Part shown: positions 34,174-53,408 of the stretch, one piece after another
How positions within the stretch are numbered: the stretch's first letter is position 1
Layout: every line of letters starts with the position of its first letter
Origin: Desulfobacterales bacterium
GTDB lineage: Bacteria > Desulfobacterota > Desulfobacteria > Desulfobacterales > UBA5852
Direction: 5' to 3'
Length of the DNA: 64,000 nt
Assembly: GCA_963674755.2 (NCBI GenBank)
Contig: CAXXVS010000002.1
Span: 1,344,001-1,408,000 of the forward strand
The notes under the pieces: generated by a model
Told to the model about the DNA's origin: nothing
The model's database searches: none
Seen by the model: the letters and a program-made list of their open reading frames with translations, nothing else
Translations under genes and position numbers: made by a program

Positions 34174-34527
34174 ATGGCGTCCTCCCCGGGAGTGAGAAAG
34201 GGTTTGCCGTACCATTCGTCCTGCCGGCATATAGGACTGATTGCACCGACACGGCCGACTTGGCGGTATGGTCGTATATCCTTCCTTTTAAAGCAACTGA
34301 AGGGCGGTCGTCAAACCCTGCCTGGGCTGCGCCAACCGCTAAAAGCGCTTTAGCCGTCACCCGACCACGGCTTCAGAAGTCAGTGGATATGAGATTTTTC
34401 TTCAATTTTTCGCATTGGACTGCTAAATTCAACCCGTATCACGGCTGACTTCGTCGGCATGCGGTCGACCATCCACATAGGGATGACAAAAACCAACCCA
34501 GAGCGACAGTTGCGGGAAAGGGCATTG

Positions 34528-36114: not shown

Positions 36115-36143
36115 TGTTGCAATGCAACATTATGTTGCGCAAC
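36115..36143. promoter_or_regulatory. Overlapping palindromes, likely enhancer (UAS) for a sigma54 activator
   Basis: TGTTGCA-A-TGCAACA (36115-36129), GCAACAT-T-ATGTTGC (36124-36138), GTTGCGCAAC (36134-36143). Confidence 0.65.
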
Positions 36144-36301: not shown

Positions 36302-36316
36302 TGGCACATTTTATGC
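36302..36316 (+). promoter_or_regulatory. Sigma54 (-24/-12) promoter of the hdr operon
   Basis: TGGCAC-ATTTT-ATGC with exact GG-N10-GC spacing, preceded by an AT-rich tract. Confidence 0.7.
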
Positions 36317-36440: not shown

Positions 36441-36995
36441 ATGACGCACAGTTCGCTTTCAGCGCGTCCGATCCTATTCAAGGGAGTTGCCTTGTCTGCC
36501 AGTCGCACCAAAAAGCGGGTCCTGATCGTCGACGATGACAAGAATCAGGCCCTCTTGTTGCGTTCGCTGATGCAGGCCAATGGATACAAACCCTTGCTGG
36601 CCGGAAGCAAACCCGAAGGCGTCAAGATGGCCGAGCGGGAAAAACCCAGCTGCATCATCCTGAACTGCATGATGTGCGGCGAAGAGGGCTTCTGCCTCTA
36701 TCGGCATTTCAAATCCGAGATCGCCTTCCGGGACGTGCCGGTCATCATGCTGTCATCGGTAAGCCGCGATATTCTTTTCCGCTTCCGTTCCCAGGCCGGC
36801 GCTTTTGGAGGCCGTGAGGCCCCCGAGCCGGAGGCGTTTCTCCAAACCCCCCCGGATATCGGCGAGTTGGTGGACACAGTGGCGCGTTTGACCGGATCCA
36901 GGGCATCCCCTTTGATCGAATCGACGTCCGGCGACGAAGCGCTTGAACCATCTTCTTCCAATCCGTCCAGGGATCCGTCAACGTCTTCACCTTGA
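36441..36995 (+). CDS. Single-domain pseudo-receiver protein
   Basis: VLIVDDD intact, phospho-Asp position is Asn (IILNCMM), KP replaced by TP; start uncertain. Confidence 0.75.
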   Translation: MTHSSLSARPILFKGVALSASRTKKRVLIVDDDKNQALLLRSLMQANGYKPLLAGSKPEGVKMAEREKPSCIILNCMMCGEEGFCLYRHFKSEIAFRDVPVIMLSSVSRDILFRFRSQAGAFGGREAPEPEAFLQTPPDIGELVDTVARLTGSRASPLIESTSGDEALEPSSSNPSRDPSTSSP

Positions 36996-37090: not shown

Positions 37091-40000
37091 ATGGCACTAA
37101 AAATCGGTTTTTACATCTGCCATTGTGGGATCAACATCGCCTACAAAGTCCGGGTGGAGGAAGTGGCCGACTTTGTACGTCAGCTGCCCAATGTCGTGGT
37201 GTCCCGGGATTACAAGTTCATGTGTTCGGACCCGGGACAGGAAATGATCGAGAAAGATATCGGCGAATACGGTCTCAACCGGGTAGTGGTGGCCTCCTGC
37301 TCCCCGCGTATGCATGAAAAGACCTTCCAGGGGGCTTGCAAACGGGCCGGGATCAACCCTTACCTCTTCCAAATGGCCTCGGTGCGCGAACAGGTCTCAT
37401 GGGTGACCCTGGACGAGGACGAGGCCACCCTGAAGGCCAAAACACTGGCGGCGGCGGCCATTAACCGGGTACGCTACCACCACGAACTGGAAAGCCGCCG
37501 CGTGTCGGTGCATCCTGACATCATGGTGGTGGGCGGCGGCATCGCCGGCATGCAGGCCGCGCTGGACATCGGCGCTTCAGGGCACCAGACCTATCTCGTC
37601 GAAAAAAGTACCACCATCGGCGGTCACATGCTGCAGTTCGACAAGACCTTCCCCACCCTGGACTGCGCCGCCTGCATCGGGACTCCCAAGATGGTGGAGG
37701 TGGCCCAAAATCCCAACATCCACCTCCTCTCCTACAGCGAGGTCAAGGAAGTCTCCGGCTATATCGGCAACTATACCGTCAAGATCGAACGCAAGCCGCG
37801 CTACATCAAGGAGGGTGTCTGCACCGGCTGCGGGGAGTGCACCAAGGCCTGCCCGGTTACCCTGCCCAGCGAATGGGACGAAGGCCTCGGCGATCGCAAG
37901 GCCATCTACCGCGCCTTCCCCCAGGCCGTGCCGATCACCTTTTGCATCGACAAAAAGGACCGGGCGCCCTGCGTGGGGGCCTGCCCGGCCCACGCCAACG
38001 TCCAGGGCTATGTCCAGCTCATCAAGATGGGCAAGTACAAGGAAGCCCTGCAGCTCATCATGGAGAAAATCCCCCTGCCCGGCGTCCTGGGACGGGTTTG
38101 CCCGCACCCCTGTGAAAGTCAGTGCCGGCGCCAGGACGTAGATGCGCCCATCGCCATCCGCGATCTGAAGCGCTTCGCCGCCGACCAGGTGGACATGGAA
38201 ACCCTGGAGCTGCCTCCCATCGAAGAGAAGGAACAGAAGGTGGCGGTCATCGGATCCGGCCCGGCCGGTCTGACCGCGGCCTTCGATCTGCGCAAGGCCG
38301 GCTACCAGGTGACCCTTTTCGAAGCCCAGGACCAGTTGGGCGGCATGCTGCGGGTGGGCATTCCGGACTACCGGCTGCCGCCGGAAGTGCTGGATGGCGA
38401 AATCGGCTATATCCTGCGGCTGGGCGTCGATACCCGCACCGGCGTGCGTTTTGGCGCTGACATCACCTTGGAATCCCTGCAAGCCGACGGCTACGATGCC
38501 GTATTTCTGGGCATCGGGGCCCAGGAATGCATGAAACTGGGCATCCCCGGCGAAGCCGAGTGTGAGCAGGTGGTGGATGCGGTCTGCTTCCTGCGGGATG
38601 CCAATCTGGAACGCAAACCCAGCCCGGGTCGTAATGTGGTGGTGATCGGCGGCGGCAACGTGGCCATCGACGCGGTGCGGGTGGCCAAACGCCTGGGGGC
38701 CGAGAAGGTCACCCTGGTCTATCGCCGCACCGAGGCCGAGATGCCGGCCGAAGAGGAAGAGATCAAGGGCGCCCGAGAAGAAGGCATTGCTTTTCACTTT
38801 CTCACCTCGCCCCTGGAAGTTATCCAGAAAAACGGCGCGGTCGTTGGCATCCGCTGTATCACCAACGAACTGGGTGCGCCCGACGCCAGCGGACGAAGAC
38901 GCCCGGTACCCGTTGAAGGCAGCGAATTTGTCATCGAATGCGATGCCGTCATCCCGGCCATCGGCCAGCGGGTGGATCTCTCCTGGCAGGATCCCACCTG
39001 CACCCTGGACTGCACGCCCCGCAATCTGATCGTAGCCGATCCGGTCACGCAGCAGACCAGCCAGTCCCACGTCTTTGCGGCCGGGGATGCGGTAAGCGGC
39101 CCGGCCACCGTGGTGGAAGCCGTCGGCGCGACCCACCGGGCGGTGGAAAACATGATCCGCCATTTGGAAGGCCGCCCGGAAGGCAAGGCCGAGGCCCGCT
39201 CGGACAAAGCGTCCGCCAAGGCCCTCCCCGGCGCCAAGCCGTCCGCGGAATGCACCTGGAGCGATATTCCAGTGGACTGTGCCCCGCTGGCCCGCGAGCA
39301 CATCACGCATCTTGACTGGGCCGTGCGGGTAGCCGGTTTCGAGGAGGAATCCATTGGTCTTTCCGAAGACCAGGCCCGCCGCGAAGCAGAACGCTGCCTC
39401 AACTGCGGGGTCTGCTCGGAATGCATGGAATGCGTCAAGGTCTGCGAGGCCAAAGCCATCGATCACACCCAGGAGCCCGAAGAAATCGAAGTCAAAGTGG
39501 GCAGCATCATTCTGGCCACAGGTTACGACCTGCTCGATCCGACCCCCATGAAGCAGTATGGCTACGGCCGCCTGACGAATGTCTTTACGAGCCTGGAGTT
39601 CGAACGTCTGAGCAATGCCACCGGTCCCACAGGGGGCAAGATTCTGATGCGTGAGCCCGACGGCAGCTTCGTCCGTCCGCCCGAAAGCGTGGCCCTCGTA
39701 CACTGTGTGGGCAGCCGGGACGTCAACTACCACGAATACTGTTCCCGGGTCTGCTGCATGTATGCCCTCAAATACTCCCACCTGATCAAGGAAAAGGTCG
39801 GCCATCATACCAAGGTCTACGACTTCTACATCGACATGCGTTGCTTCGGGGAAGGCTACGAGGAGTTTTACCGCCGCTGCCAGGAGGAAGGCACTACCTT
39901 CATCCGCGGCAAGGTGGCCGAGATCAGCGATCAGGCCCAGTCGCCGGAGGAAGAGGGCAAGCTGGTGGCGATTGCCGAAGACACCCTGCTGGGCAAGCGT

Positions 40001-40528
40001 CTGCGCCTCCCGGTGGACATGGTTGTTCTGTGCTCGGCCATCCAGGCCCGCAGCGACGCCGTGGACGTGGGTCGCATCTTCGGGGTCAATATCGGCTCGG
40101 ACGGGTTTTTCCTCGAAGAGCACCCCAAACTGGGCCCCCTCAACACGGCTACGGACGGCGTCTTTCTGGCCGGGGTGTGCCAGTCGCCCAAAGACATCCC
40201 GGACACGGTCTCCCAGGCCTCGGGGGCCGCGGCCAAGGCCCTCTCCCTGGCCACGCGGGGCGAGGTGGCCGTACCGTCGGCCATATCCTGGATCGATCCG
40301 GACATCTGTGCCGGCTGCCAGACCTGTATCGGCCTGTGCCCCTATGGCGCCATCGAATTCGACGAGCGTCGGGGCGTCTCGGTGGTCAATGAAGCGGTCT
40401 GCAAGGGCTGCGGGAGCTGCTCGGGGTTCTGCCCGAGCGGCGCCGCGCAGGTGGCCCATTTCAACAAGCAACAGGTTTTTGCGGAATTCGAGGGCCTGAT
40501 GGATGCCCTAAAGGTGGTCGGGCAATAG
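37091..40528 (+). CDS. hdrA: HdrL-type heterodisulfide reductase subunit A with inserted GltD/NfnB-like module
   Basis: CHCG, GGGIAG, DKTFPTLDCAAC, CVGSRD..CSRVCC, C-terminal 2x[4Fe-4S]; internal GRVCPHPCE, GSGPAG, GGGNVA, YRR. Confidence 0.92.
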   Translation: MALKIGFYICHCGINIAYKVRVEEVADFVRQLPNVVVSRDYKFMCSDPGQEMIEKDIGEYGLNRVVVASCSPRMHEKTFQGACKRAGINPYLFQMASVREQVSWVTLDEDEATLKAKTLAAAAINRVRYHHELESRRVSVHPDIMVVGGGIAGMQAALDIGASGHQTYLVEKSTTIGGHMLQFDKTFPTLDCAACIGTPKMVEVAQNPNIHLLSYSEVKEVSGYIGNYTVKIERKPRYIKEGVCTGCGECTKACPVTLPSEWDEGLGDRKAIYRAFPQAVPITFCIDKKDRAPCVGACPAHANVQGYVQLIKMGKYKEALQLIMEKIPLPGVLGRVCPHPCESQCRRQDVDAPIAIRDLKRFAADQVDMETLELPPIEEKEQKVAVIGSGPAGLTAAFDLRKAGYQVTLFEAQDQLGGMLRVGIPDYRLPPEVLDGEIGYILRLGVDTRTGVRFGADITLESLQADGYDAVFLGIGAQECMKLGIPGEAECEQVVDAVCFLRDANLERKPSPGRNVVVIGGGNVAIDAVRVAKRLGAEKVTLVYRRTEAEMPAEEEEIKGAREEGIAFHFLTSPLEVIQKNGAVVGIRCITNELGAPDASGRRRPVPVEGSEFVIECDAVIPAIGQRVDLSWQDPTCTLDCTPRNLIVADPVTQQTSQSHVFAAGDAVSGPATVVEAVGATHRAVENMIRHLEGRPEGKAEARSDKASAKALPGAKPSAECTWSDIPVDCAPLAREHITHLDWAVRVAGFEEESIGLSEDQARREAERCLNCGVCSECMECVKVCEAKAIDHTQEPEEIEVKVGSIILATGYDLLDPTPMKQYGYGRLTNVFTSLEFERLSNATGPTGGKILMREPDGSFVRPPESVALVHCVGSRDVNYHEYCSRVCCMYALKYSHLIKEKVGHHTKVYDFYIDMRCFGEGYEEFYRRCQEEGTTFIRGKVAEISDQAQSPEEEGKLVAIAEDTLLGKRLRLPVDMVVLCSAIQARSDAVDVGRIFGVNIGSDGFFLEEHPKLGPLNTATDGVFLAGVCQSPKDIPDTVSQASGAAAKALSLATRGEVAVPSAISWIDPDICAGCQTCIGLCPYGAIEFDERRGVSVVNEAVCKGCGSCSGFCPSGAAQVAHFNKQQVFAEFEGLMDALKVVGQ

Positions 40529-40564: not shown

Positions 40565-40987
40565 ATGGAAGATTTCGAACCCGTCGTTGTCGCTTTTGTC
40601 TGCAACTGGTGTACCTACACGGCCGCCGACCTGGCCGGCACGTCGCGCCTGAGCTACCCCAAGAATGTCCGGCTGATCCGGGTCATGTGCACGGGCATGG
40701 TGGACCCCCAGTACGTGATCAAGGCCCTCCTGGAAGGGGCCGACGGCGTCCTGGTGAGCGGCTGCCACCCCGGCGACTGCCATTACATCAACGGCAATTA
40801 CAAGGCCCGCAGGCGCATCAAGCTGCTCAAGGAAATTCTGCCCCAGTTCGGTTTCGAGCCCGAACGCCTGCGGCTGACCTGGATCGGCGCCAGTGACGGC
40901 ATCGAGTTCGCCGAAGTCATGCGGGAGCTCGTCGAGGAACTCAAGGCCCTGGGACCGAGCCAGGCCAAACTGTCAAAGGCGGTTTAA
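40565..40987 (+). CDS. mvhD: MvhD/FlpD [2Fe-2S] subunit
   Basis: CNWCTY, RVMCTG, GCHPGDCHY. Confidence 0.93.
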   Translation: MEDFEPVVVAFVCNWCTYTAADLAGTSRLSYPKNVRLIRVMCTGMVDPQYVIKALLEGADGVLVSGCHPGDCHYINGNYKARRRIKLLKEILPQFGFEPERLRLTWIGASDGIEFAEVMRELVEELKALGPSQAKLSKAV

Positions 40988-41049: not shown

Positions 41050-42189
41050 ATGGCGATCACCGCAACCATTGACGTCAGTCAGCAGGATCTGCTGGCAAGT
41101 TTGAAGACATTTGCTACCACCCTTCTCGAACAGGAGGCCATCCAAGCCATCTTGGTCCCCCAGCGGCTTCCCACGAAAGGCATGGTGATGCCCACCCTGG
41201 TGACCGATCCGGCGCACCTGGACGGGCTGGATCCCCTCTCCCCGGCCTTTCCCATGAACGGGGCCAAGGTGCTGGCCAAGCTGACCCGCCGCCCCTCCGG
41301 GGGCAAGATCGCGGCCCTCCTGCGCCCTTGTGAAATGCGCGCCTTCATTGAGCTCGTCAAGCTCAAGCAGGCCCGCACCGAGGACGTCGTATTGATCGGC
41401 CTGGACTGTCTGGGGGCCTTGCGCAACACCGATTATTTCCGCTTCGCGGGCGACGATGCCGAGGCGGCCACACGCCGCTTCACCGAGGCCATGCTGTCCG
41501 GTCAGAACGGCGCCCTGGACGGTATCGAGCTGACCGCCGCCTGCCAGGCCTGTGAAGCCTCGATCCCCACCGTGGCGGACATCGCCATCGGTTTGTGGGG
41601 CGTCGACACCAACCGGCACCTGCTGGTGGAAGCGCAAACCCCGGCCGGGGAGCAACTCTTGCAGCAGATGGGGCTGCCGGCCGGCGAAGTCCCGGCCAAA
41701 CGCCAGGAAGCGCTTAAAAAGCTGCGTGAAACCCGCACGGCCCACCGGGACGAGATGTTTGCCGCCACGGCGGCGGCCACCGACAGCATCGAGAAACTCA
41801 ACGCCTATCTGGCCAATTGCGTCAACTGCTACAATTGCCGGGTGGCCTGTCCGGTCTGCTACTGCAAGGAATGCGTGTTCGTGACGGATGTCTTCAATCA
41901 CGAACCGGCCCAGTATCTGCGCTGGGCCCAGCGTAAGGGGGCCGTCAAAATGCCCACGGACACGGTTTTTTATCACCTGACACGCCTCACCCACATGAGC
42001 ACCGCCTGCGTGGGCTGCGGCCAGTGCTCCAACGCCTGTCCCAACGATATTCCGGTGATGGAGCTCTTCCGGCTGGTGGCCCATCGCACCCAGGACGCCT
42101 TTGCCTACGAAGCCGGCCGGGATGTGACGGAAAAGCCGCCGCTGTCGGAGTTCAAGGAGGATGAATTCCAGGAAGTGGTGGGACTCTAA
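41050..42189 (+). CDS. FdhB/FrhB-like iron-sulfur protein
   Basis: LRPCE, GLDC, ACQAC, CVNCYNCRVACPVCYCKEC, CVGCGQCSNACP. Confidence 0.82.
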   Translation: MAITATIDVSQQDLLASLKTFATTLLEQEAIQAILVPQRLPTKGMVMPTLVTDPAHLDGLDPLSPAFPMNGAKVLAKLTRRPSGGKIAALLRPCEMRAFIELVKLKQARTEDVVLIGLDCLGALRNTDYFRFAGDDAEAATRRFTEAMLSGQNGALDGIELTAACQACEASIPTVADIAIGLWGVDTNRHLLVEAQTPAGEQLLQQMGLPAGEVPAKRQEALKKLRETRTAHRDEMFAATAAATDSIEKLNAYLANCVNCYNCRVACPVCYCKECVFVTDVFNHEPAQYLRWAQRKGAVKMPTDTVFYHLTRLTHMSTACVGCGQCSNACPNDIPVMELFRLVAHRTQDAFAYEAGRDVTEKPPLSEFKEDEFQEVVGL

Positions 42190-42304: not shown

Positions 42305-45300
42305 ATGCAGACGAAAATCGGCAAGGCACTTGTGATCGGCGCCGGCATCAGCGGTATTCGTGCCGCCCTGGACCTTGCAGAATTCGGCTACGGGGTCACC
42401 CTCGTCGAGCGCGCGCCGCATATCGGCGGCATCTTGAGCCAGTTGGACTACCAATTCCCGACCGACCGCTGCGGCATGTGCAAAATGCTGCCGCTGGTGG
42501 AGCGGGATGCCGGCTCCCAGTTCTGCCTGCGCAAGGGCTTGTTCCACGACAATATCGATATCCGTCTTTCCACGCAGCTGGCCTCGGTGGAAGGCGAACC
42601 CGGCCAGTTCAAAGTCACCCTGCGCCAGGAGAACAATCCGGTGGACCCGGGACTATGCATCGGCTGCGGCAAATGCGTAGACGTCTGCCCGGTGGAAACA
42701 GAAGACCGCTTCAACGCCGGCCTGGCCAAACGCAAGGCCATCTATCTGCCGGTACCCCATGCGATCCCCAATGCCTACCGCATCGATCCCGCGGTCTGCA
42801 ACCAGTGCGGCGCCTGCCAGAAGGCCTGCCCCACCGGAGCGATTCAGCTGAAAGACGAAGGCCGACAGAATTTCAAAATTCTGGTGGTGGATGACGAGCT
42901 GATCGTGCGCGACTCCCTCAAGGAATGGCTCGAAGTGGAGGGAGGGTTTGCGGTGAGCATGGCCGAGAGCGGTGCCCAAGCCTTGGAGCATATCAAGAAT
43001 GAGGGCTGCCAGCTCATGCTGCTCGACATCAAGATGCCTGGTATGGACGGGGTGGAGGTTCTCCAGAAGGCCAAGGACCTCTTTCCGGAACTGCCCGTGG
43101 TGATGATGACGGCTTACGCCACCGTAGAAACCGCGGTGGAGGCCATGAAGATCGGGGCCCTGGACTACCTTATCAAGCCCTTCGACCCGGATGCTCTGAT
43201 TCCCAAGATCATCCAAATCTATCAGGCCCTGAGCACGCCGGCCGGCCCCGAGTTGGAGGTGGGGGCCATCGTGGTCAGCGGTGGCACCAGCTACTATGAC
43301 CCCGCTCAGGGCAAAGACACCCACGGCTATGCCACCCTGCCGGATGTCGTGACGAGCATCGAATTCGAGCGCCTGCTCAGTGGCACCGGGCCCTCGGCCG
43401 GCAAGCTGGTACGGCCCTCGGACGGGCGTCCCGTGCGTTCCATCGCCTGGCTCCAGTGCGTGGGCTCGCGGGATATCCAGAGCGACGCCGATTTTTGTTC
43501 CACCATCTGCTGCATGTACGCCATCAAGGAGGCCATGGTGGCGCGTCGGCGGGCCGCCGAAGCCGGGGCTTCCATCGACACCGCGATCTACTACATGGAC
43601 ATGCGCACCTTCGGCAAGTCCTTCCAGCGCTACCGGGACCGTTCAGAAGCCGAAGGGGTGGCCTTCAAACGCGGGCGCGTGCATACCGTGGTTCCGGACC
43701 AAACGACCGACGATCTTCAAATCCGCTGGGTGCAGACCGACGGCACGGTACAGGTCGACCATGCCGATCTGGTGGTCCTGAGCATCGGCCAGCGGCCGGC
43801 CGAGGGCGCCCAGGCCCTCATGGAAACCCTGGGCATCGGGGAGAATCCCTGGGGCTTTGCCCGCACCGAACCCTTCTCCCTGACCCGCACCGCGCGTCCC
43901 GGTATCGTAGCCTCGGGCTCGTTTGCCGGTTTGAAGGATATCAGCGAATCCGTCATTCAGGCCAGTGCGGCCGCTCTGGCCGCCTCCCAGACCATTCACA
44001 GCGCCGGCGGCAGCATCGGCATCAAAGAATCCGAAGCCCCGGCCTACGAGAACGTCAGCCGGCAGCTTCCGCGCACCCTGGTGGCGGTCTGCACCTGCGA
44101 CGGTGCCGTTGCCGAACGGATCGACCGCCAAGCCCTGGAGGCCCACCTGACCCGTGATCCCGCCGTGGATCAGGTCCATTTCCAGGAACGCCTTTGCACG
44201 GCCGAGGGCTGGACCGATCTCGAAAAAACGATCCGGCGCCAGCGGCCCAACCGGCTCCTGATCGGCGCCTGTCTGCCCTATGGCTTCGTGCGTAAGCTGA
44301 AACAACTGGGCCGCGATGTTGCCCTGGATCCGCGCCTCATGGAGGTGGTGGACATCCGCACGCACACGCTGGCCGCAGAACCGGACGATGCGTCGACAGG
44401 GCCCGACCTCCCGGCAGCCCTCATCAAACGAACCCTGGCCATGGGTGTCACCCGGTTGCAGCATGCCTCGCCGCTGCCGGTGGCCACGGTACCGGTGTTC
44501 CAACGCGCTCTGGTGGTGGGCGGCGGCATTGCCGGCATGACGGCAGCCCTGTCCATCGCCGACCACGGTTTCGGAGTGGACCTGGTGGAACAGGGCGACC
44601 AACTCGGCGGGAACCTGCACTGGCTGCGCCACACGATCGACGGCGAAGAAACCACCCCCTTGCTCGAAACGACTTGCAGCCGGGTGGAAGGCCATCCCCA
44701 AATCGAGGTCCACACGGCCACCCGCATCGTGGCCGCTTTCGGTCAGGCCGGCGCCTTCTATACCACCCTCGAAGACAGCGAGGGCAAGGCCCGCCAGATC
44801 ACCCACGGGGCTGCTATTCTGGCCACCGGGGGCACTGAGGCCACCACGACCAGCTACGGTTACGGCGCCAGCGAGCGGATCATCACCCAGAAAATCCTGG
44901 AAACCCGGCTCCACGACGGCACCCTCGACCCGAAAGATCTCAAAAGCGTGGTCATGATCCAGTGCGTGGACTCGCGGGAGGAACCCCGCAACTACTGCAG
45001 CCGGGTATGCTGCCCGACCACCCTCAAGCATGCCCTGGCCCTCAAAGCGGCCAACCCCGCGTTGCCCATCGTGGTCTTCTACCGCGACATGATGGCCACC
45101 GGTTTCCTGGAAACCTATTTCACCCAGGCCCGCAAGGCCGGGGTGATCTTCATCCCCTACCGTCTGGACAATAAGCCGCAGGTCACGGCGGCCGGCGACG
45201 GGGGAACGATCGAGGTTGCCGGCCAGGAACCGTTTCTCGATCGACCGGTCACCATTGCAGCGGACCTGCTGGTGCTGGCGACCGGCATCGTACCGGCCCT

Positions 45301-45751
45301 GGCCCCGGAACTGGCCGAAGCCTACGGGGTCGATCGCGACCAGGATGCCTTTTTCCAGCAAGCCGAATCCAAGTGGCGGCCGGTGGATGCCCTCAAGGAA
45401 GGCGTCTTCGCCTGCGGGATCTGCCTGTCCCCGCGCAATGTGGAGGAATCCATCGCCACGGCGGAAGCCGCCGCCGAACGGGCCCTGCGCATCGTGGCCA
45501 GCGAGCGGGTGGCGGCGGGCAGCATCATCGCCGGCGTCCATGAAAGCCTATGCGCGCTGTGCGAACGCTGCATCGAGGCCTGTCCCTACGGCGCCCGGCT
45601 GCTGGATCCGGATGAAGACCGCATCGTGGTCAATCCGGTCATGTGCCAGGGCTGCGGGGCCTGTGCCGCCGTCTGTCCCAATGATGCCGCCTATGTAGAA
45701 GGATTCGATGCCGATCGGCTGTTGGACGTGATCGATGCGGCCCTTAATTAG
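42305..45751 (+). CDS. Tandem HdrA-like flavoprotein with an inserted response-regulator receiver domain
   Basis: Two FAD modules (GAGISG..QCVGSRD..CSTICC; GGGIAG..QCVDSR..CSRVCC), ferredoxin domains, receiver at about 42872-43230; ATG 42305 follows GGAGAG. Confidence 0.9.
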   Translation: MQTKIGKALVIGAGISGIRAALDLAEFGYGVTLVERAPHIGGILSQLDYQFPTDRCGMCKMLPLVERDAGSQFCLRKGLFHDNIDIRLSTQLASVEGEPGQFKVTLRQENNPVDPGLCIGCGKCVDVCPVETEDRFNAGLAKRKAIYLPVPHAIPNAYRIDPAVCNQCGACQKACPTGAIQLKDEGRQNFKILVVDDELIVRDSLKEWLEVEGGFAVSMAESGAQALEHIKNEGCQLMLLDIKMPGMDGVEVLQKAKDLFPELPVVMMTAYATVETAVEAMKIGALDYLIKPFDPDALIPKIIQIYQALSTPAGPELEVGAIVVSGGTSYYDPAQGKDTHGYATLPDVVTSIEFERLLSGTGPSAGKLVRPSDGRPVRSIAWLQCVGSRDIQSDADFCSTICCMYAIKEAMVARRRAAEAGASIDTAIYYMDMRTFGKSFQRYRDRSEAEGVAFKRGRVHTVVPDQTTDDLQIRWVQTDGTVQVDHADLVVLSIGQRPAEGAQALMETLGIGENPWGFARTEPFSLTRTARPGIVASGSFAGLKDISESVIQASAAALAASQTIHSAGGSIGIKESEAPAYENVSRQLPRTLVAVCTCDGAVAERIDRQALEAHLTRDPAVDQVHFQERLCTAEGWTDLEKTIRRQRPNRLLIGACLPYGFVRKLKQLGRDVALDPRLMEVVDIRTHTLAAEPDDASTGPDLPAALIKRTLAMGVTRLQHASPLPVATVPVFQRALVVGGGIAGMTAALSIADHGFGVDLVEQGDQLGGNLHWLRHTIDGEETTPLLETTCSRVEGHPQIEVHTATRIVAAFGQAGAFYTTLEDSEGKARQITHGAAILATGGTEATTTSYGYGASERIITQKILETRLHDGTLDPKDLKSVVMIQCVDSREEPRNYCSRVCCPTTLKHALALKAANPALPIVVFYRDMMATGFLETYFTQARKAGVIFIPYRLDNKPQVTAAGDGGTIEVAGQEPFLDRPVTIAADLLVLATGIVPALAPELAEAYGVDRDQDAFFQQAESKWRPVDALKEGVFACGICLSPRNVEESIATAEAAAERALRIVASERVAAGSIIAGVHESLCALCERCIEACPYGARLLDPDEDRIVVNPVMCQGCGACAAVCPNDAAYVEGFDADRLLDVIDAALN

Positions 45752-45939: not shown

Positions 45940-46524
45940 ATGACTCTCTCGCCCCCCTCCCGCCGGGAAAGCGGGGCCCATCCCGCCCCGGAGGCCCTGG
46001 AGCCCATCCAGGAGAAGATCAGGGCCTGCATCCAGTGCGGGACCTGCACCGCCTCCTGCCCGAACGAATTTGCCATGGATCTCACGCCTCGCCATCTATG
46101 GCGCATGGTGCTCATGGGGGAAACCGAGGCCATCTTCGCCAGCCAGACCTTCACCCTCTGCTCGGCCTGCTACTCCTGCACGCTACGCTGCCCGCGTGGT
46201 CTGCCGCTGACCGAGGCCATGCACGACCTCAAGCAGATGGCCTATCGCGGCCGCATGGCACGCTACAAACCCAGCACCGCCTTTTACGGCCACTTTATGG
46301 ACACCATTCGCCGCCACGGCCGGATCCGGGAAACCGAATTCATCTCCCGCTACTTCATGACCATGGCACCCAGCAAGCCGTTGCTCCCGCTCGGCTATAG
46401 CGGGCTCGGATGGCGGCTGCTGCGTAAAGGAAAAATGGCCATCGAATACCCTTTTGCGGCCCCGGGCAAGCGTTCCCTGGAAAAGGTCTTTCAAAAAGCT
46501 GAAAGCATGGAGGCATCCGAATGA
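45940..46524 (+). CDS. hdrC: Heterodisulfide reductase subunit C-like
   Basis: CIQCGTCTASCP and CSACYSCTLRCP; AAGGAG RBS. Confidence 0.88.
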   Translation: MTLSPPSRRESGAHPAPEALEPIQEKIRACIQCGTCTASCPNEFAMDLTPRHLWRMVLMGETEAIFASQTFTLCSACYSCTLRCPRGLPLTEAMHDLKQMAYRGRMARYKPSTAFYGHFMDTIRRHGRIRETEFISRYFMTMAPSKPLLPLGYSGLGWRLLRKGKMAIEYPFAAPGKRSLEKVFQKAESMEASE

Positions 46525-47402
46525 GCTACCTCTACTATCCCGGCTGTTCGCTGACCGGAACCGCGCGGGAGTACGACCTGGCCACCCGCGCCGTGATGGA
46601 CGCCATGGGTGTCCCGCTCACCGAATTGGAGGAGTGGACCTGCTGCGGGGCCAGTGCCGCCGAAGCCTGCTCCGAGTTGCTGGCCCTGGCCCTGCCGGCT
46701 ATCAATCTGGCGATCGCCGAGAAAATGGACGGCAAGCAGGACGTCCTGGTGCCCTGCAGTGCCTGCTATCTCAATTTAAAAAAAGCCAACGAGACCCTGC
46801 GGCAGGACGGCAAGACCCGGGAACGGGTCAACAGCGTCCTGGCCGAAAAGGAACTAACCCTGAAGGGGTCGGTGGGGGTGCGGCACCTTCTGGACGTGCT
46901 GGCCACCGACCTGGGGGCGGAGACGGTGCGCCGGAAGGTCAAGGTAGACCTGTCGCATCTGACCATCGCCCCCTATTACGGCTGCCAGTGCCTGCGACCC
47001 TATGCGGTGTTCGACGACCCTGAAGAGCCCCGCAGCATGGAACCGCTGATCCGGGCCACGGGGGCCCGGGTGCATCCCTGGCAGATGGGGGCCAAATGCT
47101 GCGGCGCCTCCCACATGAATACCAAGATGGAAGTGGCCCTGGAACTGGTGCACGCCATCCTGCAGGCCGCCCGTGGCGCCGATGCCATCGTGACGGTCTG
47201 CCCCATGTGCCAGATGAACCTGGAGGCCTATCAGGACAAGATCAACCGGCGCTACGGCGACGTATCCTCGGTGACGATTCTCTATTTGCCCCAGTTGATC
47301 GGCATGGCCTTCGGGATTTCCGACGAAGACCTGGGCCTGGGCCTGAACCTGGCCATCGACGACCGTTTTCTTAGCAAACACAAGACAGCCGTCCCGGCCT
47401 GA
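46521..47402 (+). CDS. hdrB: Heterodisulfide reductase subunit B-like
   Basis: YYPGC, two CCG motifs, CSAC, YYGC, CPMC; ATGA overlap with hdrC. Confidence 0.92.
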   Translation: MSYLYYPGCSLTGTAREYDLATRAVMDAMGVPLTELEEWTCCGASAAEACSELLALALPAINLAIAEKMDGKQDVLVPCSACYLNLKKANETLRQDGKTRERVNSVLAEKELTLKGSVGVRHLLDVLATDLGAETVRRKVKVDLSHLTIAPYYGCQCLRPYAVFDDPEEPRSMEPLIRATGARVHPWQMGAKCCGASHMNTKMEVALELVHAILQAARGADAIVTVCPMCQMNLEAYQDKINRRYGDVSSVTILYLPQLIGMAFGISDEDLGLGLNLAIDDRFLSKHKTAVPA

Positions 47403-47711: not shown

Positions 47712-47799
47712 AGAAAGGCATGGGCAAAAGACAAAACCTATCCTGTCCCTCCATTTGAGGGGACGTTCACGGTTTAAACGAAGCATAAAGGAGATCATC

Positions 47800-49098
47800 A
47801 TGGGCGAAGCAGCCATCCAAATCGAACCTGAACGGTCCAGTGCCTTCCTATATCACGTGAAGGAGATGCTGCCGGAGGGTGGCAATCTGGACCTCTGTCT
47901 GACCTGCGGAGCCTGCGCGTCGGGGTGCCCGGCCACCGGCCTGCACGGCATGGACCCGCGCAAATTCCTGCGCATGGCCGCCCTGGGTCTGGACGAGGAG
48001 ATCACCAGCACGCCATGGGTCTGGATGTGCAGCATGTGCCAGCGCTGCATCTATGTCTGCCCCATGAAAATCGACATTCCGGCCCTGGTTTACCAGGCGC
48101 GGGCCGCCTGGCCGCGCGAAGAGCGCCCCAAGGGCATCCTGGGATCCTGCGACATGGCCCTGCGCAACGAAAGCTGCAGTGCCATGGGCGCTTCGCCGGA
48201 AGATTTCCAGTTTGTGGTGGAGGACGTTCTGGAGGAAGTCCGTGAAAGCCAGCCCGGCTTCGAAGACCTGCAGGCTCCCGTCGACAAGCAGGGGGCCCAC
48301 TTCTTCCTGAACCAGAACTCCCGGGAACCGGTCACCGAGCCGGATGAAATGGTCCCGCTCTGGAAGATCCTGCACCATGTCGGGGCGGACTGGACTTATG
48401 GCAGCAAAGGCTGGGGGGGAGAAAACTACTGCATGTTCCTGGCCGACGACGAGAACTGGAAACACGTGGTGGCCACCAGCATCGGGCAGGCCAACGACCT
48501 GGGGTGCAAGGTCTACCTCAACACCGAGTGAGGGCACGTCACGTACGCTGTCCGGGCCGGACAGAAAAAATTCAACATCGCCACCGATCTTGAAATTGCC
48601 AGTATCTACCAATACTACGCCCGCTGGATTCGGGAAGGCAAACTCAACGTCAACAGCGACTGGAATAAAGATCTGAAAATCAAGTTCACGGTGCAGGATC
48701 CCTGCCAGATCGTGCGCAAGAGCTACGGCGATCCCGTGGCCGACGATCTGCGCTACGTCGTCAAGACCCTGGTGGGGGAAGATAATTTCATCGACATGTA
48801 TCCCAACAAATCCAATAACTACTGCTGCGGGGGCGGAGGTGGCTTTTTGCAGTCGGGCTACAACGAAGAACGACGAGAATACGGCCGTCTCAAACTGGAC
48901 CAGATTCTGGCCACCGGGGCTGACTACTGCATCGCGGCCTGTCACAACTGCCATGCCCAGATCCACGATCTGGCCGAACATTTCGAGGCCGCCTATCACA
49001 CCGTGCACCTGTGGACGCTGATTTGCCTGTCTTTGGGGATTTTGGGTGAAAATGAACGGGAGTACCTCGGGCCGGATTTGGCCGAAGTCGGTTTATAG
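47800..49098 (+). CDS. HdrD/DsrK/GlpC-like Fe-S oxidoreductase, selenoprotein (Sec244), 432 aa
   Basis: 2x[4Fe-4S] N-terminus; in-frame TGA at 48529-48531 within N-T-E-U-G-H; frame stays open into DPC..CCGGGG..CHNC; AAGGAG RBS before ATG 47800. Confidence 0.9.
48532..48564 (+). promoter_or_regulatory. Bacterial SECIS-like hairpin
   Basis: CTGTCCG-GGC-CGGACAG (48548-48564): 7-bp stem, G-starting loop 23 nt after the UGA. Confidence 0.75.
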
Positions 49099-49289: not shown

Positions 49290-51644
49290 ATGGTGCACCT
49301 TTTCCGGCAACTGCGCAACACCCTGGTGTTCAAACTCGTCCTGGCGGTGGGTCTGACCCTTCTGGTGAGCATTGCGGTCTGGGCCTATTTCAACATCCGC
49401 TACGAGAACACCAAGCTCACCCAGCACATTCTCAGTGAAACCGCCCGCTTCGGCAACACGATCAAGCTGGGCACCCACTATGCCATGATGACCAACGCCC
49501 GGGACGACATCAACCAGATCATCCTCAACATCGCCCGCCAGGAAGATATCGAAACGATCCGTATCTACAACAAAGCCGGCCAGATCAAATATTCCAATCG
49601 GCCGGAGGAGGTCGACCGGATCACCAATATCAAGGCCGAAGCCTGCGACGTCTGTCACCGCTGGGATCCGCCCCTGGAAACCCTGGCTCCCGAACAGGGG
49701 ACCCGCTTTTTTACCGGCCCGTCCGGCCAGCGGGTCATCGGGGTCATTACGCCCATCCTCAACGAACCGGGATGTTCGGAAGCCTGCCACTTCCATCCCG
49801 TCGGCAAAAAGGTCCTGGGGGCGCTGGACGTGGTCTTGTCCCTGGGAAAGGCCCAGGCCGAAATGCAGCGTTTCAAACGCGGCATTCTTCTGCTGGGGGC
49901 CTTTGTCTTTCTGGTCACCTCGGCCATCATCATGGTGGTGATGCTGCGCTTCGTCAATCGGCCCATCCGCCACCTGATCGACGAAACCCGCCTCATCGCC
50001 GAAGGCGATTACATCACCAAAGTTCCGGTGGACGGCGAGGACGAGATCAACCAGCTGGCCATGGCGGTCAACCGCATGGGGGATGAAATCGCCCGCAGTC
50101 AGGCGGATCTGCGCCGGCAGCGCAACGAGTACCAGAACCTCTTTGAGAACGTCCCCTGCGAAATCGCCGTGCTCGACCGGGAGTTCCGTCTGGTGAACTT
50201 CAACCGCAACTATGCCGCCAAATTCAATCCGGCTCCCGGGGATTATTGTTACAAGGCTTACAAAGGGCGCGAAACGAAATGCGAAAAGTGCCTGGTGGAA
50301 AAGACCTTCCAGGGCGCCGGGCCCCAACTGGGTGAGGAAACGGGTTGCGACAAGGATGGCCGGCCCGCCCACTGGCTGGTGGTCACCTCTCCCCTGGCGG
50401 ATGATACCGGGCAGGTTACCGGCGCCATGGAAATGAACCTGGATCTAACGGACATGAAGGTCCTGGAGGACAAGCTGCGCCGCTCGGAAATGAAATACCG
50501 GGCCTTCTTCAATAACATGCCCAATCCCGTTTTCGTGCTGGACGCGGCGGACCTCACCATCCTGGATTGCAACGCCAGCGTAAAAGCCGTGTATGCGTAT
50601 GAAAAATATGATATACTGGGCACATCGTTTCTCAATTTTTTCGTGGACGAGGAACAACAGGCTTTTGCCAAGGCGATTCCCACCTTGCCCTTCTTGAGCC
50701 GAGTCCGGCAAGTCAACAAATCGGGAACCCCGCTCTTCGTCAACATCCATATCTCCCCCGCTGATGACGAAGGCCGCAAGGTATTCCTCGTAACCACCAG
50801 CGATATCACCAAACGTCTCGAAGTCGAACAACAGCTCATACAGGCCAGCAAAATGGCAACCCTGGGAGAAATGGCGACCGGTGTGGCGCACGAATTGAAT
50901 CAACCCCTGTCGGTCATCAAAACGGCCAGCAGCTTTTTCATGAAGAAGGTTCGCAACCAAGAGCCGATCCAAGACGATATCATGCTGACCTTGACCGAGG
51001 AAATCGACAGTCACATCAACCGCGCCACCAAGATTATCAACCACATGCGCGAATTCGGGCGCAAGTCCGACATGGATATCGTCCCCGTTCAGATCAACGC
51101 GGTCATCAAGCGGGCCTTTGAAATCTTCAGCCAGCAACTTAAAGTGCGTGGCATCGATGTCCATTGGGAATTAGGGCAACATTTGCCGGCCATCGAAGCA
51201 GATCCCAGCTGTCTTGAACAGGTTTTCATCAATCTGCTGGTCAACGCGCGGGATGCCATCGAGTCGGATTGGGACGATGGTGCCGGACAGCTGCTGGAAC
51301 GGCCTTCCGACTATCCGGCCAAAGCGATTTTTATTCGCACCCGATGTCAGGACGACCACGTCATCGCAGAGGTGGAAGACAGCGGTAAGGGCATACCGGA
51401 GGGGATTCGCGACAAGATTTTCGAGCCTTTTTTCACCACCAAGGAAGTCGGCAAAGGGACTGGGCTGGGTCTTTCCATCAGCTATGGGATCGTCAAGGAC
51501 TGCCGTGGCGACATCCGGGTCGATTCCCTTCCCGGTCGGGGGGCACGGTTCATCATAAGCTTTCCCGCATCCTGCCCGGGAAATACCGGCAGCATCCTAC
51601 TGGCACGCAACCGCATGAACAATGAAGCATCAACTCCGGGATAA
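49290..51644 (+). CDS. Membrane sensor histidine kinase (periplasmic haem-c motifs, HAMP, 2 PAS, HisKA, HATPase)
   Basis: Two TMs flanking CDVCH and CSEACH, DEINQLA HAMP, HELNQPL, NARDA, GTGLGL. Confidence 0.92.
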
Positions 51645-53364
51645 CGTCATGTTTCTGCGATACGATCAGATCGGCGAAATATTCGACCTCCTGTCGCTGG
51701 GGGTCATCGTGCTATCGCCCGATCGCAAAATCGTATCACTCAATCGTACTGCCGAAACCCTAACGGGCAAACGGGCACAAGATGTCCTGGGCGAGAACTG
51801 CTTCGACATCTTTCTGGACTACCTATGCGGCGGCATATGCAAATATCAAGAAAAACCGGGGTTGGAAATCGAAACGTCCGTGTCCGAAATCGATTTCATC
51901 GCACCCAACCAGAAGCAATGCAGCCTGACCAAGATTGAATCCCCGCTTTTCGGTGCCGATCACCGCCTGCTGGGATGCATCGAGGTTTTTCAGGACCACT
52001 CCGCCTTCCGCGATCTCATCAAACGCATTCGATTCGAGGACCTTCGCCTTAAAATCATTCTGGACAATCTCGACATCGGGATTTTGACCGTCGACCGGGG
52101 CGACCATATCTCCTTTTTCAATACCATGGCGGAAAAAATTACGGGCTTTGCCCGCACCGATCTTCTGGGGAAATCATGCGCCAGGGTATTCGGCCCGCGC
52201 TTCAGCAAGGAGTTCCAGCCGCCTCCGAACCAACTGGAGGACGGCAACGGCCATTTCCGGGTCGAAACCGACCTGTCCACGCGCGAGGGTCAGCGCATCC
52301 CTGTCAGAACCAACTATGTCCCCTTGAAGAATGAGGAGGGCGAAGTGGTGGGGGGATTGACCACCATTTCCGATCTCTCCCTCCAATACCATTATAAAAG
52401 CGCCATTCGGGGGCAGTACACCTTCTATGACATGGTGGGCCGCCACCCTGAAATGCAGAAGATCTTTGAAATTATTCCGGTCATCGCGTCCAGCGATGCC
52501 ACCGTACTCATCGAAGGGCCCACCGGCACCGGTAAAGATCTGCTGGCCAAAATCATCCACAACGCCAGCGAGCGTGCGAACCGGAAAATGATCAAGGTGA
52601 ACTGCGCTTCTCTGCCCGACAATCTGCTGGAGTCGGAAATGTTCGGGTATGTCAAGGGGGCCTTTACCGGAGCCGAACGTGACAAGCCAGGCCGCTTTCA
52701 AATGGCCGACGGCGGCAGCATTTTCTTGGACGAGATTGGTGATCTGCCGCTGCCCTTGCAGGCTAAACTGCTGCGCGTCATTGAGGACCGTGAATTCTAC
52801 CCTCTCGGCAGCCGCCAAACGACCCAGGTGGATGTGCGCATTATTTCAGCCACCAACCAGAACCTGAAGCAGCTTGTGGAGGCCAAAAAATTCCGCGAAG
52901 ATCTTTACTACCGCCTCAATGTGATGCGCCTTGAGCTACCGTCCCTGAAGGAACGCAAAAGCGACCTGCCGCTGCTGATCGAACACATTCTCAAGCGCAT
53001 CTGCACCCACAAAGGCACCACCATCAACCACATCGACGAGTCGGCCATGGAGGTGCTCCTCAATTATGACTATCCCGGCAACGTCCGCGAACTCGAAAAC
53101 ATTCTTGAGCATGCCCTCATCATCTGTCGCGGCGATATGATCGAGAGAAAGCACTTTCCGCTCTGGCTTCTCAAGGATGCCCCCCAGGAACCCTCGGACG
53201 ACGGCAGCATCGGATACGTTGGGCGGGTATGGGATGAAAAGGAACGGATCATCGATGCGCTCCGTCGCTGTCGATGGAACAAAAGCCAAACAGCACGCGC
53301 TCTGAATATGGACCGCACCACCCTGTGGCGCAAGATGAAAAAATACCGGATCGGCGAAAACTGA
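51622..53364 (+). CDS. Sigma54-dependent activator PAS-PAS-AAA+-Fis HTH, no receiver domain
   Basis: GPTGTGKD, GAFTGA, FLDEIG, FREDLYYRLNV, YPGNVRELEN, DRTTLWRK; start may be 51649. Confidence 0.94.
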   Translation: MKHQLRDNVMFLRYDQIGEIFDLLSLGVIVLSPDRKIVSLNRTAETLTGKRAQDVLGENCFDIFLDYLCGGICKYQEKPGLEIETSVSEIDFIAPNQKQCSLTKIESPLFGADHRLLGCIEVFQDHSAFRDLIKRIRFEDLRLKIILDNLDIGILTVDRGDHISFFNTMAEKITGFARTDLLGKSCARVFGPRFSKEFQPPPNQLEDGNGHFRVETDLSTREGQRIPVRTNYVPLKNEEGEVVGGLTTISDLSLQYHYKSAIRGQYTFYDMVGRHPEMQKIFEIIPVIASSDATVLIEGPTGTGKDLLAKIIHNASERANRKMIKVNCASLPDNLLESEMFGYVKGAFTGAERDKPGRFQMADGGSIFLDEIGDLPLPLQAKLLRVIEDREFYPLGSRQTTQVDVRIISATNQNLKQLVEAKKFREDLYYRLNVMRLELPSLKERKSDLPLLIEHILKRICTHKGTTINHIDESAMEVLLNYDYPGNVRELENILEHALIICRGDMIERKHFPLWLLKDAPQEPSDDGSIGYVGRVWDEKERIIDALRRCRWNKSQTARALNMDRTTLWRKMKKYRIGEN

Positions 53365-53408
53365 AACCGCCTGCCCCGTCTGTGGGCCCACCGGTGGGAA
53401 CGCTAACC

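Follow-up and report, generated by a model that had tools for sequence, protein, structure and literature searches.

We describe here a gene in a 64,000-nucleotide stretch of a Desulfobacterales genome (GenBank assembly GCA_963674755.2; hereafter the window) whose product, P0001, is a flavoprotein resembling heterodisulfide reductase A (HdrA) with a complete two-component receiver domain (REC) built into its first redox module. The receiver has all of its catalytic residues, and it is encoded close to histidine kinases that are missing from loci in which those residues have decayed. On balance we lean toward the idea that it is a real phospho-acceptor by which the co-encoded kinases control the low-potential branch of the enzyme or its assembly. 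The gene and its parts, including the domains that bind flavin adenine dinucleotide (FAD) and resemble thioredoxin reductase (TrxR), are as follows.

42305..45751 (+): gene for P0001, 1148 residues, a fused double (type II) HdrA-like flavoprotein into which a receiver is inserted (open reading frame, translation, Pfam and NCBIfam domains, Foldseek)
42635..42865 (+): inserted 2x[4Fe-4S] ferredoxin domain of module 1, residues 111-187 (Fer4/Fer4_7 at 113-185; aligns to 8rvv_A up to residue 309)
42866..43243 (+): receiver insertion, residues 188-313 (PF00072, residue conservation, modelled fold, clean insertion)
43244..44014 (+): module 1 TrxR-like FAD domain where it resumes, residues 314-570; it has the CxGSRD...C..CC cluster motif and the E355/K408 pair (aligns to 8rvv_A 311-513)
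44066..45748 (+): module 2, in order an HdrA N-terminal-type Cys domain (588-722), another TrxR-like FAD domain that lacks an inserted ferredoxin (730-1070) and, at the C terminus, a 2x[4Fe-4S] ferredoxin (1075-1148) (phmmer, Pfam)

The receiver and its HdrA host

The P0001 frame begins with the ATG at 42305. A longer frame from 42161 exists, but homologues align from residue 1 of the 42305 start. Within P0001, the Pfam family Response_reg (PF00072) matched residues 192-301 (nucleotides 42878-43207) with an E value of 1.4e-30 and 106.1 bits against a cut-off of 30.2. The match spans positions 1-109 of the 111 in the profile and falls between the Fer4 matches at 113-185 and the resumed FAD/TrxR domain of module 1. 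Receivers work through an acidic pocket of two Asp residues, an acceptor Asp, a Thr or Ser, a Lys and an aromatic switch residue. The landmarks in P0001 are DDELIV from residue 196, LLDIKMPG from 239, which holds the acceptor D241 (codon at 43025-43027), MMTAYA from 267 (T269) and LIKPF from 289 (K291-P292). A first-pass annotation of the window had reported a complete in-frame CheY-like receiver in the first HdrA module, and all of its landmarks proved to lie where that annotation had placed them. In an AlphaFold2 model, residues 191-310 adopted the canonical (beta-alpha)5 fold, with strands at 191-195, 216-220, 237-241, 265-269 and 287-290 and five helices; the predicted local distance difference test (pLDDT) values of this block were mostly 80-89.

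PF00072 was carried by 119 of the best 120 protein clusters (59-100% identity, query included). The exception, P0017, is an 868-residue protein that covers 76% of the query and gave no PF00072 match. When these 120 clusters were aligned (homologues 59-90% identical), D196, D197, D241, T269 and K291 were present in all 119 sequences covering them, and the switch residue Y288, together with P292 and F293, was present in all 120. The catalytic residues listed in the first-pass annotation, including D241 and K291, are thus conserved throughout the covering homologues, and it is a degenerate sister clade, described below, that has lost its catalytic residues. The mean majority fraction was 0.81 for the receiver, compared with 0.74-0.88 for the redox domains, and the most conserved receiver helices were alpha4 (0.98) and alpha1 (0.84). 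Alpha4 lies on the output face of receivers, and alpha1 is the helix on which kinases dock. The nearest receivers by sequence were those of the NtrC family (ZraR, AtoC, FleR and NtrC1). A library clustered at 50% identity held eight full-length representatives with the same domain order, seven of which keep all the catalytic residues plus Y288. As far as sequence can tell, the intact chemistry and switch residues, together with an almost unchanging alpha4, favour a working receiver.

The insertion site could be defined closely. Searched with phmmer against solved structures, P0001 split into four stretches on a single HdrA chain, 8rvv_A. Residues 6-184 matched 8rvv_A 141-309 (the start of the FAD domain and the inserted ferredoxin domain), residues 312-518 matched 311-513 (the FAD domain resumed), residues 589-756 matched 1-164 (the N-terminal Cys domain and the start of the second FAD domain), and residues 969-1148 matched 465-643 (where the FAD domain ends, plus the ferredoxin at the C terminus). 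P0001 is therefore a fusion of two HdrA units with complementary domain loss. Where P0001 has the receiver, canonical HdrA has a single residue, and a MAFFT alignment with six receiver-less double HdrAs showed a single clean gap of about 126 residues. HdrA sequence stands on either side of the receiver, with CPTGAIQLKDEG starting at residue 175 and ELEVGAIVVSGG at residue 316. In the inserted ferredoxin domain, C118, C121, C124, C128, C165, C168, C171 and C175 were invariant among 50 aligned sequences. The Cys residues of the cluster motif (C385, C398, C402 and C403) and the flavin-side pair E355 and K408 were likewise invariant in the homologue alignment and match their 8rvv_A counterparts (positions mapped by hand). 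These invariant residues agree with the earlier judgement that the HdrA motifs are intact on both sides of the insertion, with no sign of decay.

Pfam found FAD/pyridine-nucleotide-disulfide oxidoreductase signatures at residues 5-41 and 735-853, the two places where a TrxR-like FAD-binding fold with its GxGxxG motif was recognized, together with two ferredoxin-type 4Fe-4S motifs at 113-185 and a C-terminal dicluster domain at 1076-1128. The module 2 families were Pyr_redox_2 (735-853) and Fer4_10 (1079-1125); of its flavin pair, at least 90% of rows keep K908 and fewer keep the Glu. By phmmer and segment mapping, the chain has two TrxR domains, and its N-terminal unit lacks the N-terminal Fe-S and C-terminal ferredoxin (Fd) domains, the layout of a type II HdrA. 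The AlphaFold2 model of P0001 had a mean pLDDT of 78.6 and a predicted template modelling (TM) score of 0.78. Its best Foldseek matches were the HdrA chains 8rvy_A, 8rvu_A, 5odc_A and 7bkb_A, with E values of 4e-42 to 9e-41 for the first three and TM scores normalised to target of 0.73-0.91 for the HdrA top matches. The comparison of a model with HdrA structures that the first-pass annotation had proposed thus returned a (beta-alpha)5 receiver within an HdrA. Against the curated families of the coenzyme B-coenzyme M (CoB-CoM) HdrA equivalogs, P0001 scored below both cut-offs (NF040770, 642.6 against 1100; NF041778, 522.4 against 1400). It is HdrA-like and lies outside the methanogen HdrA equivalog families.

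Sediment Desulfobacterota of the sulfate-reducer type commonly have this design. Among 400 other genomes sampled evenly across the phylum, 9 from 7 families had the whole junction at an E value of 1e-66 or better when eight candidates per genome were scored. Contigs from public sequencing runs of three studies bridge the receiver junctions with 0 or 1 differences. One contig (X1 record 2) spans 42472-43534 and another (X5 record 17) spans 42305-43412, both with 0 differences, and two more (X3 records 9 and 10) cross one receiver junction apiece. One of the runs that supplied contigs may be the source sample of the window DNA. No RNA data set was listed as carrying the gene. We can dismiss the idea that a response-regulator gene was joined chimerically to hdrA during assembly or annotation: the same architecture appears in those 119 of the best 120 clusters, at 56 genome and metagenome loci and in 9 of the 400 phylum genomes, its junctions are bridged, and nothing was found in favour of an artefact.

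Linkage to kinases and history of the receiver

Genes in the window run in the order hdrL-mvhD-fdhB-like-hdrA(REC)-hdrCB; after them come a membrane histidine kinase, a receiver-less sigma-54 activator and a REC-kinase hybrid. The three regulatory genes are as follows.

49290..51644 (+): membrane histidine kinase, with a transmembrane segment, a periplasmic domain, a second transmembrane segment, HAMP, PAS, HisKA and HATPase (Pfam; hydrophobic segments at 10-36 and 196-224)
51622..53364 (+): sigma-54 activator with a PAS input and no receiver (Sigma54_activat, PAS and HTH_8 matched; no PF00072)
53274..54923 (+): REC-PAS-kinase hybrid, RECHK_dn (Response_reg 51-160, HATPase_c; start likely the M of MAKEK near 53412)

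We fetched 156 loci, 79 from species genomes and 77 from metagenomes, and kept the 119 in which a plus-strand HdrA frame covers at least 70% of the query. Loci were classed by the five catalytic receiver residues in the HdrA frame, with DDDTK taken as intact. Kinase orthologues were called at no less than 40% identity and 60% coverage and were judged in loci with at least 5 kb of downstream DNA.

Intact receiver (DDDTK): 56 loci, 27 with at least 5 kb downstream; kinase orthologue 22/27, REC-kinase hybrid 23/27
Degenerate receiver: 13 loci, 6 with at least 5 kb downstream; kinase orthologue 0/6, REC-kinase hybrid 0/6
No receiver: 48 loci, 31 with at least 5 kb downstream; kinase orthologue 1/31, REC-kinase hybrid 1/31
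Incomplete alignment: 2 loci, 1 with at least 5 kb downstream; kinase orthologue 0/1, REC-kinase hybrid 0/1

The kinase and the receiver thus show conserved genomic linkage, one of the features expected of a cognate pair. The lone "receiver-less" locus with both a kinase and a hybrid is L115, whose HdrA frame, 56% identical to P0001, ends at the contig end. When L115 is left aside because its receiver state cannot be judged, the kinase orthologue is found in 0/30 receiver-less loci. Since the receiver has decayed where the kinases are missing, it can be argued that those kinases, or one of them, use the HdrA receiver. Because the sigma-54 activator has no receiver, whereas its counterpart in the degenerate clade bears one, the HdrA receiver is the only conserved, acceptor-intact receiver on a non-kinase output.

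The degenerate sister clade consists of metagenome loci (L080-L088, L092, L100, L113, L127 and L144). Its members have the inserted receiver fold at the same site with the catalytic residues replaced (e.g., DPDGH and TPDAK), and their receiver identity is 22-38%. Two of them were scanned with Pfam, and the receiver scored 23.0 bits in L081, below the 30.2 cut-off, and 31.5 bits in L085, just above it. The degenerate loci retain hdrL-mvhD-fdhB-hdrA-hdrCB, and their regulators are divergently transcribed: one is a kinase with the layout PAS-HisKA-HATPase-REC, the other a sigma-54 activator of the classical kind that bears a REC. In several of the degenerate loci a stand-alone intact receiver gene also precedes the HdrD-like gene (e.g., L083 15942-16400).

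A FastTree phylogeny was computed from 60 rows with the receiver columns removed. It included the window, 28 of the 55 intact forms (drawn at random), all 14 degenerate forms, 3 close receiver-less forms and 14 of the 54 distant receiver-less forms as outgroup; the degenerate forms number 13 in the locus classification and 14 in the tree, where L088 is also counted. All receiver-bearing forms fell into one clade (support 99), sister to the receiver-less L118 and L122, and the degenerate forms made up one sub-clade within it (support 100). A receiver-less orthologue, L104, was nested beside an intact form (support 89). At 52% identity, this orthologue (L104 3101-6166, plus strand) has no receiver, the gap falling exactly on the insertion boundaries, and it may represent a secondary, precise loss of the receiver or an assembly variant. 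The simplest history suggested by the tree would be one gain, one decay and one loss. Receivers are also fused to HdrA-like proteins in at least two further architectures, both seen in proteins of public metagenomes: in P0158 (1217 residues) three N-terminal receivers precede a complete HdrA, and in P0261 (1011 residues) an HdrA-like core is preceded by a GcvH-like domain and an N-terminal receiver.

The rest of the operon

The remaining features around the hdrA(REC) gene are as follows.

34459..36075 (+): REC-PAS-HisKA-HATPase hybrid kinase, upstream (Pfam; homologues near the operon in L004, L007 and L010)
36115-36129 and 36134-36143 (+): GTTGC-type palindromes TGTTGCAATGCAACA and GTTGCGCAAC (sequence; about 170 bases upstream of the sigma-54-type element)
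36302..36316 (+): putative sigma-54-type -24/-12 element TGGCACATTTTATGC (pattern scan; AT-rich intergenic region upstream of the operon)
36441..36995 (+): single-domain receiver-like protein at the operon head, with Asn at the acceptor position (CIILNC) (PF00072, E 3e-11)
37091..40528 (+): HdrL, a type III HdrA into which a GltD/NfnB-like NAD(P)H module is inserted (Pfam Fer4_20 and Pyr_redox_2; NCBIfam)
40565..40987 (+): MvhD-like [2Fe-2S] adaptor (PF02662, E 7e-56)
41050..42189 (+): FrhB/FdhB-like flavo-iron-sulfur subunit (PF04432 and Fer4 families; syntenic in orthologous loci)
45940..47402 (+): HdrC (45940-46524) and HdrB (46521-47402) (Fer4_17, two CCG domains)
47755..49098 (+): HdrD-like gene, HdrC and HdrB fused, interrupted by a single in-frame TGA at 48529-48531 (its two halves match Fer4_8 and CCG domains)

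The protein encoded at 36441-36995 is probably a pseudo-receiver, judging from the Asn at its acceptor position. In HdrL, a PRK12771 module at residues 289-805 interrupts the NCBIfam HdrA2 match, with HdrA2 positions 1-303 on one side and 293-657 on the other. This NAD(P)H module sits at about the same HdrA position (around residue 300) as the receiver in the neighbouring HdrA, and this edge of the inserted ferredoxin domain seems to be a place where insertions recur. Read through its TGA, the HdrD-like gene has a single stop, U259 (NTE-U-GHV), at the start of the first CCG domain, and this codon probably encodes selenocysteine. Two adjacent HdrD-like frames recur in L005, L083, L085 and L113.

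The periplasmic domain of the membrane kinase is about 160 residues long and contains the motifs CDVCH (nucleotides 49644-49658), a CxxCH at residues 119-123, and CSEACH (nucleotides 49773-49790), a Cx3CH at residues 162-167. Both were kept in seven of eight kinase orthologues; the L002 frame reads otherwise at the first motif. The domain may be a c-type haem redox sensor. In the REC-kinase hybrid, the SHxIKGLL His box is conserved.

The element TGGCACATTTTATGC was labelled by its likeness to the sigma-54 -24/-12 consensus. When this pattern was scanned loosely, 25 sites matched where 15.8 were expected, a number also reached in 2 of 100 shuffles, so the count means little; only the intergenic site at 36302 is of interest among the 25. 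The two palindromes may be binding sites for the PAS/sigma-54 activator encoded downstream.

A possible switch at the low-potential exit

P0001 shares with the HdrA of methanogen HdrABC-MvhAGD complexes (PDB 5ODC, 7BKB and 8RVU/8RVY), its top sequence and fold matches, the TrxR-like FAD fold, the inserted and C-terminal 2x[4Fe-4S] ferredoxins, the N-terminal Cys domain, the CxGSRD..C..CC motif and the flavin-side Glu/Lys pair (E355/K408 in P0001). It differs in being made of two fused units with complementary domain loss and in having a receiver after the inserted ferredoxin domain. The first-pass annotation had described HdrA as the flavoprotein of HdrABC-MvhD complexes. P0001 is not a plain HdrA of that kind; it is a fused double HdrA in an hdrL/fdhB-like operon. 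From the gene content, P0001 would probably form a soluble, electron-bifurcating or confurcating complex with HdrL and its NAD(P)H module, MvhD, the FdhB-like subunit and HdrCB. The heterodisulfide CoM-S-S-CoB is unlikely to be its substrate in a sulfate-reducer-type bacterium.

Classes of HdrA have been set out for methane-metabolising archaea, in which type II has two TrxR domains and type III has GltD inserted, and the flavin-side pair is numbered E356/K409 (PMC12054007). As far as the accessible part of that article describes the classes, the N-terminal unit of P0001 is like class A6 in having neither the N-terminal Fe-S nor the C-terminal Fd domain, and a second unit is fused to it. The P0001 gene also neighbours an F420-dehydrogenase/FdhB-like gene, and the HdrL of the window is type III. 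The article covers archaea only, and its accessible text has 0 occurrences of "receiver" and of "response regulator." The only solved fused double HdrA that we encountered is BamE, from the class II benzoyl-CoA reductase of Geobacter metallireducens. As presented in the accessible part of the preprint, BamE is a fused HdrA dimer in which the N-terminal TrxR1 flavin is bifurcating and the clusters of the ferredoxin-type domains lead to the low-potential acceptor (bioRxiv 10.64898/2026.04.10.717634). Its likeness to P0001, as another fused double HdrA, is one of description; its domain permutation, its partners (BamBC and BamGHI) and its substrate differ, and it is without a receiver, the word having 0 occurrences in that part of the text.

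The operon type itself has been seen before. Locus VIII of the hdr loci of Desulfobacterium autotrophicum HRM2, published in 2009, has hdrL/hdrA4, fdhB and hdrCB, with neighbours labelled response regulator, histidine kinase and CheY-like regulator (PMC2702500). The key to Fig. S3a of that paper lists "response regulator receiver domaine" among the Hdr Pfam domains, possibly that of HdrA4; in the main text as accessible, the sole match to "response regulator" is the figure-legend label of a neighbouring gene. In NCBI and UniRef, orthologues of P0001 go by the names "response regulator," "FAD-dependent oxidoreductase" and "heterodisulfide reductase subunit A"; one of them, WP_207680659.1, is from the cultured Desulfonema magnum. 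A full-text literature search, whose reach excluded figures and the Appel et al. 2021 review, turned up no paper in which a receiver within HdrA is discussed or tested. The first-pass annotation knew of no characterized example, and to that extent it stands, but the 2009 figure key and the database names already mention the receiver. The novelty is therefore narrower than had been hoped, and P0001 combines two known kinds of protein, the enzyme-linked response regulator and the type II HdrA.

By analogy with these systems, we place the receiver at the low-potential exit of a probable bifurcating unit. This placement follows from the role of HdrA's inserted ferredoxin domain as the low-potential route out of the bifurcating FAD, as given in the accessible part of PMC13518236, from the bifurcating N-terminal flavin of BamE and from the invariant E355/K408 pair. 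The first-pass annotation took as its premise that movement of the inserted ferredoxin domain is proposed to gate electron flow at this hinge. That premise is imprecise: the mobile gating elements named in the same part of PMC13518236 are the N-terminal domain of HdrA with VhuD, so the receiver lies away from the published hinge.

The mechanism that we consider would run as follows. A functional, NtrC-like receiver would have been inserted once, at the point where module 1 passes from the inserted 2x[4Fe-4S] ferredoxin back into its FAD domain. Its D241 would be phosphorylated by the co-encoded membrane kinase, with its periplasmic CxxCH and putative haem c, or by the REC-kinase hybrid. Phosphorylation would bring about a T269/Y288-coupled change of the alpha4-beta5-alpha5 face, which would either move the neighbouring ferredoxin domain or change access to it, or else affect how the complex assembles. 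In this way the enzyme would be switched post-translationally, with the receiver-less PAS/sigma-54 activator controlling transcription separately. Whereas the domain, its site, its conserved residues, the synteny with kinases and the loss of catalytic residues where kinases are missing were all observed here, we infer the phosphorylation, the donor kinase and the effect on electron flow. A more specific version can be put forward only tentatively: that the periplasmic haem-c-type sensor kinase, directly or via the REC-kinase hybrid, phosphorylates the receiver at the low-potential exit of the Hdr-type bifurcating flavoprotein, so that the extracytoplasmic redox state would switch ferredoxin-level flow or the choice between bifurcation and confurcation. 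In that case flavin-based electron bifurcation would itself be under two-component control, the first such instance in which gene expression is not the target.

Response regulators with an enzyme output, such as CheB, PleD/WspR and RpfG, have a receiver covalently joined to an enzyme whose activity phosphorylation is expected to control. P0001 differs from them in that its receiver lies in the middle of the fold of a redox flavoprotein, not at the N terminus, and in that the output is an Fe-S flavoenzyme of energy metabolism.

Several observations weigh against control of the enzyme by phosphorylation. Five of the 27 intact-receiver loci (L010, L096, L103, L123 and L153) have no kinase orthologue nearby. 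The association with kinases rests on one decayed clade and one receiver-less orthologue (L104) and carries little statistical weight; because there are so few independent events (a gain, a decay and a loss), it is suggestive rather than statistical. The kinase, the hybrid and the PAS-sigma-54 activator are all absent together from the degenerate clade, so signalling from kinase to HdrA receiver and from kinase to transcription are inseparable there. Conservation of alpha1, of the alpha4-alpha5 face and of the dimerization and histidine phosphotransfer (DHp) helix, in the window plus eight loci, is similar for both kinases and both receivers and does not tell which kinase pairs with which receiver. 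Finally, the degenerate clade keeps the fold without the chemistry, so the receiver fold also has a role independent of phosphorylation.

One alternative is that the signal runs in reverse. The locus encodes two or three kinases and several receivers, without any DNA-binding regulator that bears a receiver, and in such a kinase/REC-kinase network the HdrA receiver could compete for phosphoryl groups or act as a phosphate sink. If the redox state or conformation of the flavoprotein set its accessibility, the enzyme would report the cytoplasmic redox state to a transcription pathway and would not itself be regulated. Consistent with this idea, the REC-kinase hybrid is linked as tightly as the membrane kinase (23/27 versus 22/27), a putative sigma-54-type promoter lies upstream of the operon, and the degenerate clade has lost the entire signalling module together. 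The sigma-54 activator, however, has PAS inputs and no receiver, leaving no obvious phospho-dependent transcriptional endpoint, and the near-invariant alpha4 fits an output face that touches a fixed partner. Receivers covalently joined to enzymes also generally regulate that enzyme. We therefore regard a reversed signal as unlikely.

Somewhat less likely again is that the receiver fold serves mainly as a structural or docking module, for instance for HdrL, ferredoxin or another subunit at the low-potential exit, and that phosphorylation has little or no role. Invariance of the five catalytic residues and Y288 in every covering sequence of the main clade would be unexpected for a pure scaffold, and the decay of the catalytic residues coincides with the absence of kinases. 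The persistence of the fold at the same site throughout the degenerate sub-clade, with its catalytic residues replaced, does fit a docking role, as does the HdrL module at about the same HdrA position, which marks the site as permissive for docking or insertion.

Flavin-based electron bifurcation has a central place in the energy conservation of anaerobes, and, as far as we found, its control has so far been discussed only in terms of gene expression and of conformational gating built into the complex. A conserved receiver that is apparently open to phosphorylation and travels with its own sensor kinases offers a hypothesis that can be tested by mutation, namely that electron routing is set post-translationally by a sensory signal. 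The handles are D241 and the two kinases, and the intact, decayed and absent receivers within one operon family provide natural comparators. Because the family is common in sediment sulfate-reducer-type Desulfobacterota, it bears on carbon and sulfur cycling.

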